From Sulfolobus acidocaldarius DSM 639 (GTDB lineage: Archaea; Thermoproteota; Thermoprotei_A; Sulfolobales; Sulfolobaceae): a DNA stretch of 32,000 nt. Below, one piece after another: positions 20,741 through 30,063 of this stretch. The stretch spans positions 1,650,001 through 1,682,000 of the forward strand of contig NC_007181.1 in the NCBI RefSeq assembly GCF_000012285.1, read 5' to 3'. Position 1 is the stretch's first letter. The number at the start of each line of letters is the position of its first letter. The position numbers and the translations under genes were made by a program. The notes below the pieces were generated by a model. The model had not been told where the DNA came from. It was given only the letters and a program-made list of their open reading frames with translations, and did not search any database.

Positions 20741-20760
20741 AATAGAAATTTTTCTCTCAA

Positions 20761-20770
20761 AAATAATAAA
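20761..20770 (-). promoter_or_regulatory. TATA box of cas1
   Basis: TTTATTATTT on the minus strand is centred about 25 nt upstream of the cas1 ATG (20740). It lies only about 26 bp from the outer boundary of leader 2. Confidence 0.5.
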
Positions 20771-20795
20771 CTTTTATCATAATTAATAAATTTTG

Positions 20796-20961
20796 GGTAT
20801 TATGTTATTTCCTTCCGTATCCTTACGTAAAATGGTTTTAGGGTTACCCTGTGTAGCCTAAAACTCCCTTCCGCACCCCAGGGAACAAAATTGACAATGA
20901 AGGAGAGAAAATATTTATAAACCAGGAAATAAGAATGTAAAATTGATGAAGCCAACGATCA
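20796..20961 (+). promoter_or_regulatory. CRISPR leader 2 with TATA box (TTTATAAA, 20914-20921)
   Basis: Inverted copy of 8595-8760 with 7 differences in 166 nt. It directly abuts the first repeat of array 2, and the TATA box ends 41 nt before the first repeat. Confidence 0.85.
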
Positions 20962-23900: not shown

Positions 23901-25586
23901 AAGAAACTAAAACACTATTACTTTTGAAAATATGTAGATAAGACTGGTGTAATAACGACAAGAAACTAAAACTTACAGTTGTTCCGTTAGGAAGTATATA
24001 GTTACTGTAATAACGACAAGAAACTAAAACAAAATAATCATAAAACCCGAGCATTACGAAGAATTGAGTAATAATGACAAGAAACTAAAACTGTAAAGGA
24101 CTTCTTAAAAAGGTTAGAGGGGTTTCTCGTAATAATGACAAGAAACTAAAACGTAATTATTCTGATGGGTGCTATAATCTCGATGGCGTAATAACGACAA
24201 GAAACTAAAACAGCGATTAGTTTAGTCGAATTAGCTATTGCGACTTGTAATAACGACGAGAAACTAAAACATGGGATCCTGATAATTCGGCATCAGCACA
24301 ATTCGTAATAACGACAAGAAACTAAAACCTCTTCATTTGTCTCGTGAAATATAGGGTTTTTCAGTAATAACGACGAGAAACTAAAACATAGGGTAGTTCA
24401 CAAAGAGCCAGCCCTCGTCAACGTAATAACGACAAGAAACTAAAACCTTTACGTAGTAGTTATAGAGCTTCGTTACGTGCTGTAATAACGACAAGAAACT
24501 AAAACCTTGAACCATTGAACCTGCGATTGCAGGGATTAAGTATGTAATAACGACAAGAAACTAAAACGCTGACTGGGGGTGAGCCAGAAATGAAGACTGG
24601 AAGGTAATAACGACAAGAAACTAAAACTAAAATTAGTCTGCTGGCCAATTAAGAACAAACTCTGTAATAACGACAAGAAACTAAAACGTGCAACAGGGTG
24701 AAACATAGATGAGCACATTTTTGTAATAACGACAAGAAACTAAAACATTATGCTCATTATCTCTGATTTCGACCTTAAAGCGTAATAACGACAAGAAACT
24801 AAAACCTACATTGTCCTGAAGTCCTAACTTCTTTAATTCCTTGTAATAACGACAAGAAACTAAAACTTTTTATTTTCAGTAGCTATCACCATAGTAGCCC
24901 TAAAAGTAATAACGACAAGAAACTAAAACTACTCCCCAGGCTTACCCAGCAAGAAGAGGAAGCCTTGTAATAACGACAAGAAACTAAAACTAGGAGGAAA
25001 ATATAGGAATATAAAGATAGTACTAGTAATAACGACAAGAAACTAAAACTAGGAGGAAAATATAGGAATATAAAGATAGTACTAGTAATAACGACAAGAA
25101 ACTAAAACTAGGAGGAAAATATAGGAATATAAAGATAGTACTAGTAATAACGACAAGAAACTAAAACTAGGAGGAAAATATAGGAATATAAAGATAGTAC
25201 TAGTAATAACGACAAGAAACTAAAACTAGGAGGAAAATATAGGAATATAAAGATAGTACTAGTAATAACGACAAGAAACTAAAACCATTTTAGCTCAAGC
25301 ATCACCAGCATCAATTGAAAGGTAATAACGACAAGAAACTAAAACACCGTTCCGTAGATATTATTACTGTAACTCCCTCCCGTAATAACGACAAGAAACT
25401 AAAACACTGGGCTCCCCGTGATCACTCCAGGTCCTTATGTTGGTAATAACGACAAGAAACTAAAACGACGCTAAAAAGCAAGAACAACAATCACAACAAT
25501 CGGTAATAACGACAAGAAACTAAAACTTTCTTAGTGAATCCCATGTACGTATATCTAATTTAGTAATAACGACAAGAAACTAAAAC
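20962..25586 (+). CRISPR. CRISPR array 2: 78 repeats, 77 spacers
   Basis: I counted 78 copies of GTAATAACGACAAGAAACTAAAAC (first 20962-20985, last 25563-25586), with spacers of 33-39 nt. Variant repeats start at 23118 (extra A, or C24A), 24068 and 24129 (C8T), and 24247 and 24364 (A12G). Confidence 0.99.
24967..25261 (+). repeat. Five tandem identical repeat-spacer units (59 nt x 5)
   Basis: The spacer TAGGAGGAAAATATAGGAATATAAAGATAGTACTA occurs five times in a row: 24991-25025, 25050-25084, 25109-25143, 25168-25202 and 25227-25261. Confidence 0.98.
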
Positions 25587-25627
25587 ACTGTAACTATTTA
25601 AAATAGAATGATGAGAGAATGACAAAG

Positions 25628-25978
25628 CCTTGCCGTTTATGGCGAGGTAAAGGTTTCTACTTACGAGAGAAAAGTTGTTATTAAGAGGAAGCCCGTAAGA
25701 GCATGGGTCAGTCAGTGTGTGTCCCTCTTTCCTGGTACATATCCCTGAGTCTCGAGGAGCGTGGAGTTAGGGCAACTCCACCAAAGGGATAGGGGTTGAG
25801 TGGCTGAAGGCTCAGCCAGTGGTCTACCACTGAAAGAGTGGAGCGGAGCGGGCTTCTGAGCCCACTAGCTATGAAGTGATAAAAGTGAAGGTGATAAACT
25901 ACAGACCTGTGAACTGCCCTAGGTAACCCTCACTCTTTAGAGCGAGGAGGAAGTCAGTATCACACCAGATGCTGTGAT
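25628..25978. ncRNA. Candidate structured RNA or structured DNA element (unclassified); a G+C-rich hairpin cluster
   Basis: Seven local hairpins fall within about 350 nt: 25628-25647, 25741-25790 (enclosing the perfect 8-bp stem 25761-25781), 25802-25817, 25818-25831, 25850-25863, 25928-25947 and 25959-25978. 36 of 60 nt are G/C in 25801-25860, against 18 of 60 in 26221-26280. All plus-strand frames I translated hit early stops, the longest open stretch I found is about 78 codons on the minus strand, and the ORF track lists nothing here. Strand and class are undetermined. Confidence 0.3.
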
Positions 25979-26837
25979 GTCTGTTGCAACCTTAATTGCA
26001 ATTGTATCCGACGAGACTGTCATGGGAATCATTCAAACTTAGAATACATAGATCCTCAATTCATCCTCTCCAATCATATGTCTAGATTTTAGCCCAATCT
26101 CTCATTGAAGAGTTTAAAAGGGCTAAGAGGAGAAGTAGAGAAGTATCCACGAAACCTACTTGTCTGGGCTACTAAAATACAACACAAATATATTAGAGGA
26201 GAGTAGAAACGCCACGGAGATTACTAAGAAGCTGGGTGATAAATTGTTAACTAAATGCATGTTTAAAGGCAAAAAAGAGAGTGCAGAAAAAAATCAAAAG
26301 AAATAGTTAACTTCCTGGTTAATCATAAGGAAGTATTTTCATTTAAAACTAACTGTCAAAGAAAAGTTGTAACCATTAGGACTTAACGTTATTGACCCGG
26401 AAGAGAAACAACAAAATCTAGGATTTAGTGTTATCAGTTTATCATGGAGCGAGCATAACATTCCGAGCATAACATTTTAAATAAACTTTACCCATAAGAT
26501 TGTAGAAATCTCGTGGGTAAAGCATTTGTTAGAATATGCACTCCACCCTTAGGATTGCCTTAAGAAAGAAAATAATAAGTTCACATAAGCCGACTAGAAC
26601 TTGAATAGGACATGGCTTATGAACAGGTCTTCTGTCAAGTGTCAGTGTGCTCATTACATGTGTTAATTTACAACTTCCCCTAACGCCAAGTATAGTCAAG
26701 ATATTACAAATCCTAAGAATCATGGAAACCACATGACTATTCTCTAGCTAGAGGACAGTAGAATAGAGCTTCCCCGTTCATAACTCTTAACTTAACGTTT
26801 ACGTTAAATTTTTAGACCTAGATGCGTATACATAATT

Positions 26838-27062
26838 ATGTCAGACGTAATTAGTGTAAGAGTAAGAAAAGAATTGAAGAGGAGGGCTGAGGAGTTGGGA
26901 ATTAACCTGAGGGAAGTTGTGGAGAGGGCACTTGAGGAGGCTATAAGGAAAAAAGAGATGGAGAGGGTTAGGACTATAGCTAAAAAGATCCAGGAAAATA
27001 TGCAGGGTATAAGTGAGGAGGAGTGGGCTCAATTAGTCAGGGAGAGTAGGGATGAGAGGTAA
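26838..27062 (+). CDS. vapB: VapB-type antitoxin (ribbon-helix-helix-like)
   Basis: 74 aa. The N-terminus ISVRVRKELKRRAEELGINLREVVERALEE looks like an RHH DNA-binding fold. It overlaps the downstream PIN gene by 11 nt. Confidence 0.75.
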   Translation: MSDVISVRVRKELKRRAEELGINLREVVERALEEAIRKKEMERVRTIAKKIQENMQGISEEEWAQLVRESRDER

Positions 27063-27447
27063 ATTCCTTTTTGACGCTTCAGCAATATACCCCTTAATCA
27101 AATTCGTTGATAAGGTGGACCTAAAGAACATTTACATACTACATTTAACTTTATATGAGGTAGGGAATGCAATATGGAAAGATGCTTTTCTACACGGGAG
27201 GATTAAGAACGCTAAAGAAGTAGCCCTCCTCTTCCAACAGTTAATGGGAGAGTTTAACATCATCGACGACCCTCCTCTGGACGAGGTCATAGGAATAGCT
27301 ATAAGTAAGGGCATTACATATTACGATGCTTCTTATGTCTACGTCTCTGCTAAGGAGAAATTGATATTAGTGAGCAACGACAAAGAGCTCATCTCTAAAG
27401 GTAATACTATATCCTTTAACGAGTTTATGGAAAAATATCTCGCCTAA
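27052..27447 (+). CDS. vapC: VapC PIN-domain toxin
   Basis: 131 aa. The acidic PIN quartet is at the expected spacing: D8 (FLFDAS), E36 (LYEVGN), D92 (YYDASY), D110 (SNDKEL). Confidence 0.85.
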   Translation: MRGKFLFDASAIYPLIKFVDKVDLKNIYILHLTLYEVGNAIWKDAFLHGRIKNAKEVALLFQQLMGEFNIIDDPPLDEVIGIAISKGITYYDASYVYVSAKEKLILVSNDKELISKGNTISFNEFMEKYLA

Positions 27448-27456
27448 ACGACTAAG

Positions 27457-27480
27457 GTAATAACGACAAGAGAAAAATAC
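27457..27480 (+). repeat. Orphan degenerate CRISPR repeat
   Basis: GTAATAACGACAAGAGAAAAATAC matches the array repeat at 20/24 positions (the first 15 nt are identical) and has the same orientation as array 2. It lies 1870 nt after the last canonical repeat and 9 nt after the vapC stop. Confidence 0.85.
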
Positions 27481-28819: not shown

Positions 28820-30063
28820 AGTAACAACTTCCCCGGGTTGAGTATGTTGTTGGGGTCAATGGTCCTCTTCAACTTCTTCATTAAGTTTAACCTTGACTCC
28901 TCGTCCACCCTGTAGTTCACCTCTATTGAGTGAATTTCAAAGGGTATCCCCTCCCTTGTCATTATGCTGTCAATCACTGGGAAATTGCCCTTATCTGACA
29001 TGAACACTGTGTAGACTATTGTCTCTCCCCTCAGGGTCATAACGTCCCCGTGGACTAATACACTACTGCCTAGAGCCATCTTCACCTGCTTTACTACCCT
29101 TGAGAAGCTCTCTAAGGGTAAGAGCCTTACCTCGTAGAAGTAGTCCTTAAAGCTGGTCAACCTGCTCATTGTGACGTAAATTGCAGCAAAGGCAAGTTCG
29201 TCCAGGAACCTCATGTTGACCTCCTCTCCTAGGCTCAGAGTGCTAGCAACTATTACGTTCCACTCACCTACCTTATCTAACCTGTCCTTGGCTACTGACG
29301 AGAGTGTCTCCTTGTCCTCTATTGTGATCCTCCTTATCTTGGACTTGTAGTCTCTTACTCTCACCAAGTACTTTGTCACTTCCTCTACGCTGTTGAACGT
29401 GACTAGTTGGTCCTTCCAGTCCTCATAGTCCACTGTTGCCAACTCCGCTGAGGAGATTATACCCGTAGTCCCGGCTGCTTGGGCTACCCCTAGTGTGTCC
29501 TCACCCCTTAGCTCATACTTCCCAGTGGGTCCAACGACTCTGACGGAGTTTATCCCTCCGTTGTCGAAGTGGTAGCCGTACTGAAATGAGCCTATCCCTA
29601 CGTCTCCCCCTGCTATATATCCCCCCAGGGTGGATATGTAGAAGCTGCTTGGGTAGACCCTTAGCTCTTTACCCCTCTTTCTCAGGTACTGAAGAGCCTT
29701 AAACACTTTCACACTGGGGGTTATCCTCACCCAGGAGTCGTCTGACTCTATTACTTCCCTCATTCTGTTGATGTCTAAGACAATGGTTGAGGGAGAAATA
29801 GGTAAGACCTGTCCTATAGTACTGGTACCGGCTCCCCTGGCTAGCAGTGGTATGTGGTGTGTGTCACACAACCTAACAGCGTTAAATATGTCCTCCTCGT
29901 CATCTGCCATGACGACCCCTATCACTTTTTTGCCCATTTTAGATAGGACTGGGGAGACAAGGTATGGAGCCTTGGACTCTTCCTCTAGGACTCTGTCGTT
30001 CGTTATGAACTTCTTGTCGCCGAACTCCTTCTCAAAGGTTTTTGTAATGGTCTCAGCTTCCAT
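28816..30063 (-). CDS. FAD-binding oxidoreductase (PCMH/VAO-type, GlcD / D-lactate dehydrogenase-like)
   Basis: 415 aa. The N-terminal FAD-binding region has LLARGAGTSTIGQ (the RGGGTS-type motif) and the later GGDVGIGS motif. Confidence 0.85.
   Translation of the reverse strand: MEAETITKTFEKEFGDKKFITNDRVLEEESKAPYLVSPVLSKMGKKVIGVVMADDEEDIFNAVRLCDTHHIPLLARGAGTSTIGQVLPISPSTIVLDINRMREVIESDDSWVRITPSVKVFKALQYLRKRGKELRVYPSSFYISTLGGYIAGGDVGIGSFQYGYHFDNGGINSVRVVGPTGKYELRGEDTLGVAQAAGTTGIISSAELATVDYEDWKDQLVTFNSVEEVTKYLVRVRDYKSKIRRITIEDKETLSSVAKDRLDKVGEWNVIVASTLSLGEEVNMRFLDELAFAAIYVTMSRLTSFKDYFYEVRLLPLESFSRVVKQVKMALGSSVLVHGDVMTLRGETIVYTVFMSDKGNFPVIDSIMTREGIPFEIHSIEVNYRVDEESRLNLMKKLKRTIDPNNILNPGKLLL

Follow-up and report, generated by a model that had tools for sequence, protein, structure and literature searches.

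The G+C-rich island that lies directly downstream of CRISPR array 2 in Sulfolobus acidocaldarius is, with a probability of roughly 0.88, a fossil PATE (palindrome-associated transposable element) of the IS200/IS605 family, that is, an immobile relic whose core is a TnpB omega-RNA scaffold. The island was found in a stretch of 32,000 nucleotides (positions 1,650,001 to 1,682,000 of contig NC_007181.1), which is called the window in the following and to which five-digit positions refer. The element is composed of a left end, a short internal remnant, the omega-RNA scaffold and a right end (Table 1). From position 25614 or 25625 up to 25957, it is homologous to two further short elements of the genome (72% and 76% identity, respectively), and it also aligns with short elements from three other genomes. 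A PATE with an omega RNA is an already known kind of element; it is neither a new RNA class nor a component of a CRISPR system. The assignment explains a puzzling G+C island beside a well-studied CRISPR array in a model archaeon and removes a candidate for a "new RNA", and its significance lies mostly in annotation.

The origin of the element can be envisaged as follows. An insertion sequence of about 1.8 kb carrying tnpA and tnpB would have been converted to the short element by internal deletion. The short form has kept the left-end hairpin, by which TnpA recognises the element on single-stranded DNA, and the last 225 nt or so of tnpB together with the right end. The latter two parts encode the scaffold of the omega RNA, which is the guide RNA of the TnpB nuclease. 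Upon transcription, the scaffold would fold into five conserved helices and the right-end hairpin, and the flank of about 20 nt following GTCAG would serve as the guide. The RNA would then be loaded in trans by a TnpB that is encoded elsewhere, and the only intact candidate in this genome is Saci_0487.

Table 1 Features of the short element and its surroundings in the window (five-digit positions) and related sequences elsewhere in the S. acidocaldarius genome (genome positions)
Feature	Position	Strand	Evidence or remark
Last canonical repeat of CRISPR array 2	25563-25586	+	
Short non-autonomous IS200/IS605 derivative (PATE-like), 349 bp	25609-25957	+	homology, shared boundaries
TGAT, counterpart of TGAC at the left boundary of aligned short elements	25609-25612	+	
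Left-end subterminal hairpin GCCTTGCC-GTTTAT-GGCGAGG, then TAAAG	25627-25652	+	pattern found in genome
Internal remnant: degraded T-rich box, GAGGAAGCCCG (25685-25695), GTGTCCCTC	25653-25734	+	alignments
TnpB omega-RNA (sotRNA-type) scaffold, helices H1-H5 and right-end hairpin, ending GGAGGAAGTCAG	25735-25957	+	
Right-end hairpin CCCTCACTC-TTTA-GAGCGAGG, UUUA tetraloop	25927-25947	+	sub-threshold matches to Rfam HgcC, sot0042
Would-be guide segment, flank directly 3' of the right end	25958-25977	+	copies stop at GTCAG
5'-truncated, frameshifted pseudogene of an SDH-type ClpP-like serine protease	25959-26550	+	abuts right end
vapB-like gene and vapC (PIN)	26838-27447	+	
Degenerate CRISPR repeat, 20 of 24 positions matching	27457-27480	+	
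P2, short element	418875-419226	-	76% identity to window 25625-25957
T1, 3' end of intact tnpB	407016-407249	+	82% identity to window 25736-25965
P4, short element	1764503-1764855	+	72% identity to window 25614-25957
P5, decayed scaffold without left end	1622169-1622385	+	70% identity to window 25737-25899
Weak decayed scaffold without left end	1790193-1790427		model R1

Extent and composition of the element

The first-pass annotation of this DNA had drawn attention to a G+C island in an A+T-rich background at 25628-25978. The base composition bears this out, as the G+C content amounts to 50.1%, compared to a mean of 37.8% in the window (standard deviation 5.2% for stretches of 351 nt) and 36.7% in the genome. 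The island forms the second highest G+C peak of the window; the highest peak, near 29411, is located inside a long open reading frame. It was also stated correctly that the island contains no credible open reading frame. Nothing longer than 43 aa overlaps the region, the longest frame within the element has 40 aa and is located on the opposite strand, and one frame represents the decayed C-terminal tail of TnpB, which is 65% identical over 65 aa and interrupted by stops. A protein-level match to a decayed, G+C-richer gene had been weighed in the first-pass annotation as an alternative to an RNA; this alternative turned out to be half right, the DNA in question being the tail of tnpB. The island itself was placed correctly, but its limits have to be revised because the natural unit is the 349-bp element, whose exact boundaries were taken from five near-identical copies in the genome G046 (see below).

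The window element and the short elements from the three other genomes can be aligned from TGA(C/T) to GTCAG. TGA is invariant in the alignment of short elements (A3), and the flanks of the G046 copies diverge directly upstream of TGAC. TGA(C/T) could be a target-adjacent motif, or the left end could already begin with it, and the left flanks of the aligned short elements and of the G046 copies contain no conserved target-adjacent motif beyond TGAC. At the other boundary, the homology among all copies ends at GTCAG (25957), after which the flanks differ. By analogy to the biology of TnpB, the segment that follows may act as the guide. A search of the complete genome, a single contig of 2,225,959 bp, revealed no second match for the would-be guides of all five copies.

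The pattern of the left-end hairpin occurs only four times in the genome, namely in the window copy, in the short elements P2 and P4 and upstream of a truncated tnpB gene at 417.6 kb. The left ends of the window copy and of this truncated gene are 88% identical over 33 nt. Moreover, the left-end hairpin resembles the right-end hairpin, both being of the CCTCGCC-loop-GGCGGGG type. Such a likeness is typical of the ends of IS200/IS605 elements, which are recognised by TnpA on single-stranded DNA. The left-end hairpin is located 108 nt upstream of the scaffold in the window copy and 108-129 nt upstream when P2 and P4 are included; because of this short distance, about 1.3 kb of tnpB must be missing.

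The missing part of tnpB also speaks against a plain pseudogene. On that reading, in situ decay of a full-length tnpB would have left only its 3' part, which would never have been a mobile short element and would resemble a PATE only incidentally. Such an origin would be compatible with the decayed TnpB-tail frame and its stops, and the genome indeed contains other decayed scaffolds without a left end (P5 and the weak site in Table 1). However, left end, GGGAAGCCC, GTGTCCC and scaffold follow one another in this order also in the two paralogues and in the aligned short elements of other genomes. Furthermore, the related short element of G046 is present in five dispersed and near-identical copies, which indicates that such a short form transposes. 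Decay in place is therefore improbable, and a mobile ancestor that was shortened internally is preferred.

The internal remnant contains a T-rich box, which reads TTTTTTAA in the relatives and is degraded to TTTCTACTTA in the window copy. The box may represent a promoter, in which case the promoter of the window copy would be weakened. Further downstream, the motif GAGGAAGCCCG is conserved in six out of six aligned short elements. The first-pass annotation had compared GAGGAAGCCCG and GGAGGAAGTCAG to the CR-I motifs of RNase P RNA. This comparison does not hold, as the former is a motif of the short elements and the latter (25946-25957) is their conserved right-end terminus.

Fold of the scaffold and comparison with RNA families

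Of 46 other Sulfolobaceae genomes, 28 contain scaffolds homologous to that of the window copy, and the copies are often numerous. An alignment of 21 scaffold copies, four from the S. acidocaldarius genome and 17 from other Sulfolobaceae, was analysed with RNAalifold. The predicted consensus contains 50 pairs, 21 of which show compensatory double changes, the copies being interrelated and the region partly coding. For instance, the pairs of the stem GTGGAGTT/AACTCCAC vary among G-C, C-G, U-A and A-U, and the stem GGCTG/CAGCC is replaced by GGGCT/AGCCC or GGGGT/ACCCC in relatives. Several pair types were observed in the helices H2, H3 and H5, and these helices correspond to the three perfect stems that the first-pass annotation had named. 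Thus, the named stems are present and belong to a structure that is kept across relatives, and the conservation and covariation that had been proposed as a check do exist, with compensatory changes in the stems. The hairpin count has to be corrected in one respect, because the last hairpin counted (25959-25978) lies beyond the element in the flanking pseudogene.

A covariance model, designated R1, was built from 15 copies and did not include the window copy, P2 and P4. When applied to the 32-kb window, R1 gave one match, which covers the model in full length at 25735-25957 on the plus strand (179 bits, E ~1e-68). In the whole genome, the model detected T1 (244 bits), P2 (238 bits), P4 (207 bits), the window copy, P5 (106 bits) and one weak site. 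The window copy has the lowest R1 score among the four well-preserved genomic copies. The pairing was also inspected in a set of 51 hand-curated pairs, which comprises the five helices and the right-end hairpin. The window copy has kept 47 and T1 has kept 50 of these 51 consensus pairs. Compared to the majority of T1, P2 and P4, 14 pairs are changed in the window copy; ten of them still pair, two by a double change, and four are broken. This pattern suggests that the pairing was under constraint during part of the history of the window copy, and the constraint may predate its immobilisation.

The fold energy relative to shuffled sequences had been proposed as a further check. For the 351 nt of the island, the difference is marginal, with z = -1.94 on the plus strand and z = -2.79 on the minus strand, and the single-sequence fold energy of the scaffold alone is no better than that of shuffles (z = -0.99). 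Because the single-sequence z-scores are marginal, the support for the structure is comparative and not thermodynamic. The earlier view of the island as a structured RNA is upheld by the conserved fold and by the homology to the omega-RNA-coding 3' end of tnpB.

At gathering thresholds, Rfam yielded no match across the whole 32-kb window. At permissive thresholds, the two best plus-strand matches were HgcC (RF00062; 25.5 bits, E 0.0012, 25846-25966; gathering score 50) and sot0042 (RF02656; 16.7 bits, 25737-25948; gathering score 88). In both cases, the matching part is the hairpin CCCUCACUC-UUUA-GAGCGAGG with the tail GGAGGAAGUCAG. By the Rfam criterion, membership in either family is ruled out, as both scores are far below the gathering scores. 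The 3' hairpin and the GGAGGAGGUCAG-like tail are common to both families and the window scaffold, whereas the upstream helices of the latter do not match either model. The two families are nevertheless informative. According to Gomes-Filho et al. (2015; PMC4615843), sot0042 is a sense-overlapping transcript that belongs to an IS1341-type tnpB and lies at the 3' end of this gene, the same tetraloop, which is like that of the right end, is a motif of the HgcC family, and HgcC was discovered through its G+C content in the way that the first-pass annotation followed for the island. Hunting for G+C islands in A+T-rich thermophiles keeps rediscovering the scaffolds of TnpB guide RNAs.

It had also been noted in the first-pass annotation that RNase P RNA, SRP RNA, tRNA and C/D-box RNA do not fit the island. 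Indeed, none of these families appears at E <=10 in 25400-26300, where the only related Rfam entries are chance-level snoRNA matches outside the island. An unrelated and undescribed structured RNA, be it RNase P-like, SRP-like or new, which merely resembles transposon ends, would also produce a G+C-rich island with many hairpins in the genome of an A+T-rich thermophile. Given that no Rfam family reaches its gathering score in the window and that sequence homology traces the entire island to the 3' ends of tnpB genes and to left ends, such an RNA is barely conceivable.

TnpB, TnpA and the state of the window copy

The only intact TnpB of this lineage in S. acidocaldarius is Saci_0487 (450 aa, 405.9-407.2 kb). 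The protein matches OrfB_IS605 (1e-28), contains a Cas12f1-like_TNB domain and reaches 177 bits with the NCBIfam model guided_TnpB. It aligns with solved structures of TnpB and Cas12f through GVDLG and NADxN, which we take to be the sites of two of the three RuvC catalytic residues. The TnpB profile spans residues 23-383, and the last 67 codons are located in a G+C-rich stretch that is homologous to the island; judged from the sequence, these codons would mainly be scaffold. In this region (L003:1509-1709; 407.0-407.2 kb), the DNA for the last 67 TnpB residues, which the family profile does not reach, also codes for the omega-RNA scaffold. A constraint on the RNA and not on the protein may therefore underlie the "peptide" GGWSEG...VVY.WTSGAGW that is conserved in relatives. 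The scaffold of the window copy is 82.5% identical to that of T1 and 75.6% identical to that of P4. The three short elements of the genome are diverged, and the two paralogues share the whole 345-nt layout of the window copy.

Several other TnpB-related sequences exist in the genome. A second tnpB (L002; 417.6-419.3 kb), with 40% identity to the intact gene, breaks off at residue ~365, where it meets P2, which is inverted, head-on at the right end of the latter; this tnpB has its own left-end hairpin at 417623. Two more TnpB-related genes are located at 1752.06-1752.22 kb on the minus strand (SACI_RS09365) and at 1837.65-1837.81 kb on the plus strand (SACI_RS09780), and both give circular RNAs at their 3' ends (PMC12558985, Table S3). 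Since the TnpB query and model R1 both missed the two genes, they belong to other TnpB/omega-RNA lineages. An omega RNA has also been reported at a different TnpB, Saci_1941 (PMC12817955).

The transposase TnpA (PF01797) has no match in the complete S. acidocaldarius genome, while the control genomes do match. TnpA was not detected either in four other genomes that were checked, all of which have only diverged copies. The situation is different in G046 (contig of 2,694,756 bp), where seven full-length elements were fetched and all seven carry a Y1 transposase gene (n = 7 TnpA genes). This genome harbours five near-identical copies of a 357-bp element at different sites, with the exact boundaries TGACAAAAC...GGAGGTCAG. 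Each copy consists of the first ~50 nt, a 25-nt internal piece of tnpB and the last 227 nt of the 1.8-kb element. The G046 short element also carries GGGGAAGCCC and GTGTCCCC; in the full-length G046 element, the GGGGAAGCCC piece is found some 100 nt upstream of the scaffold. The G046 copies and the distribution of TnpA lead to the conclusion that the short form does transpose as a unit in genomes with TnpA, but is fossil in S. acidocaldarius. The five short copies beside seven parents with tnpA and tnpB (L058-L062) also make a good set for defining the target-adjacent motif of this lineage.

Among the loci that were fetched from other genomes, eight have a full-length tnpB upstream of the scaffold, one of them frameshifted, and the rest are tail only. 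The tail-only loci mostly keep TnpB from residue ~312-383 onward. Three of them, in three other genomes, possess a left-end hairpin 110-130 nt upstream of the scaffold; these are the short elements that align with the window copy over their entire length and share GGGAAGCCC and GTGTCC with it. The comparison documents a family of gene-less omega-RNA elements of about 350 bp across the Sulfolobaceae.

PATEs of this kind have been described before. Haloarchaea contain PATEs with fused left and right ends, from one of which the intergenic RNA VNG_R0052 is made in Halobacterium salinarum, and the sotRNAs have an average length of 218 nt (Gomes-Filho et al. 2015; PMC4615843). PATE-like elements are also known from Geobacillus stearothermophilus, and it has been noted that PATEs often code for omega RNAs, which TnpB encoded elsewhere has to use in trans (Meers et al.; PMC10055086). 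Like these elements, the window element is gene-less, has a size of a few hundred bp, consists of a left-end hairpin fused to a right end and has kept the omega-RNA region. It would depend on TnpA and TnpB in trans, it is multi-copy and it has full-length parents in related genomes. Moreover, the hairpins at both ends are alike, the ends are homologous to those of full-length elements bearing tnpB, and the dispersed copies have sharp boundaries. In contrast to the known PATEs, the element belongs to a Sulfolobaceae lineage with its own sequence, and the window copy is old (72-82% identical to its paralogues). The genome also lacks a TnpA able to mobilise it, which bears on the present mobility of the window copy, probably immobile, and not on its origin. 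The option of a mobile-element-derived RNA, which had been raised in the first-pass annotation, has thus proved right. The island unites a left end with that part of an IS200/IS605 TnpB element which comprises the right end and the 3' stretch coding for the omega RNA.

The scaffold also resembles the TnpB omega RNAs (reRNA/sotRNA) themselves. It overlaps the last tnpB codons and the right end, has a length of about 220 nt and terminates in the stable right-end hairpin, the loop of which is UUUA; the predicted guide would start directly after the transposon end. It differs from them in that the window copy has no tnpB upstream.

Because the genome lacks TnpA, the window copy can neither move nor be excised. 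As there is no excision, the usual job of the guide, which is the cutting of the emptied donor site, has no substrate. Hence the window copy is probably idle, an immobile relic that still looks foldable.

An unlikely, yet serious, alternative is that the same element is still in use. In this case, the scaffold would be transcribed either from a promoter in the left end or as a 3' extension of the array-2 pre-crRNA, and it would be loaded in trans by the Saci_0487 TnpB as an extra guide. The degree of pairing that has been kept, with most of the changed pairs still pairing, and the high identity to the scaffold of the intact tnpB are consistent with use, as is the orientation of the element, which starts shortly after the last repeat and agrees with the direction of array transcription. 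Furthermore, a use of PATE omega RNAs in trans has been proposed (PMC10055086), and a gene-less paralogue is reported to be expressed. Circular RNAs annotated as "Partial IS200/IS605" and supported by 136 junction reads have been listed at genome positions 1764683-1764803 on the plus strand (PMC12558985, Table S3), and this site falls inside P4. Like the window copy, P4 consists of a left end, a remnant and a scaffold, but it is located at another site, its T-rich box is better preserved and its R1 score is higher (207 vs 179 bits).

However, the table that contains P4 lists no circular RNA at 1675-1676 kb, i.e., at the window copy, nor at 407 kb or 419 kb (PMC12558985, Table S3). The degraded T-rich box, the guide without any other match in the genome and the lack of a donor joint that could be cut also argue against present use, and the constraint on pairing may date from the time before immobilisation. 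The idle relic is therefore preferred. With three copies, one intact TnpB and no TnpA, S. acidocaldarius offers a natural setting for the question of whether orphan omega RNAs are used in trans.

CRISPR array 2 and the flanking DNA

The leader of array 2, which contains a TATA-like box, is located at ~20741-20961, so that transcription of the array runs in the direction of the element and on its strand. A gap of 22 nt separates the element from the last repeat, and we read this position as a chance landing. The first-pass annotation had considered a CRISPR-associated RNA. Such an RNA could be an anti-repeat or tracr-like RNA, or a trailer element that array 2 requires. Besides the proximity to the array and the location on the transcribed strand, the sequence GTTGTTATTA at 25674-25683 fits this idea, as it can pair with positions 2-11 of the repeat when one G-U pair is allowed. 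However, this match of 10 nt is the only complementarity to the repeat and is at chance level, its length being equalled or exceeded in 3 of 200 shuffles. Neither the paralogues nor any of the relatives inspected are located beside arrays; the relatives occur at the 3' ends of tnpB genes or within short derivatives of transposons. Array 1 also has no such element at its end. Moreover, the cas genes present here belong to type I and III systems, which are not known to use a tracrRNA. Taken together, a role of the island in the CRISPR system is very improbable.

A long shot is a link at the level of the transcript, in which the scaffold would form the 3' tail of the array-2 pre-crRNA. Cleavage of the last repeat by Cas6 would release an RNA with the repeat handle at its start and a complete omega-RNA fold behind it, and the Saci_0487 TnpB would use this RNA in trans. 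If true, a CRISPR array and a TnpB guide scaffold would be united in one natural transcript, which would be a living analogue of a step that has been proposed to explain how the guide RNAs of Cas12 arose.

The segment that extends from the last canonical repeat to a degenerate one further downstream (25587-27480) contains the short element, followed by a protease pseudogene and a vapBC pair. By tblastx, the pseudogene matches a 327-aa open reading frame of another genome (G005) in shifting frames, starting at 25959 with residue ~125 of the homologue. The 327-aa frame matches Pfam PF01972, and the first ~125 codons of the homologue are absent from the pseudogene. A single insertion of the element into a spacer does not fit this layout, as no repeat follows the right end and the truncated protease pseudogene starts there. 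This arrangement implies a further rearrangement, and more than one event has shaped the trailer of the array. As a minor observation, two of the three short elements, the window copy and P4 (L004:1501-2993; 1764.5-1766.0 kb), are followed after 480-880 nt by a vapBC pair in the same orientation. This is probably a coincidence; the two vapBC pairs are unrelated in sequence.
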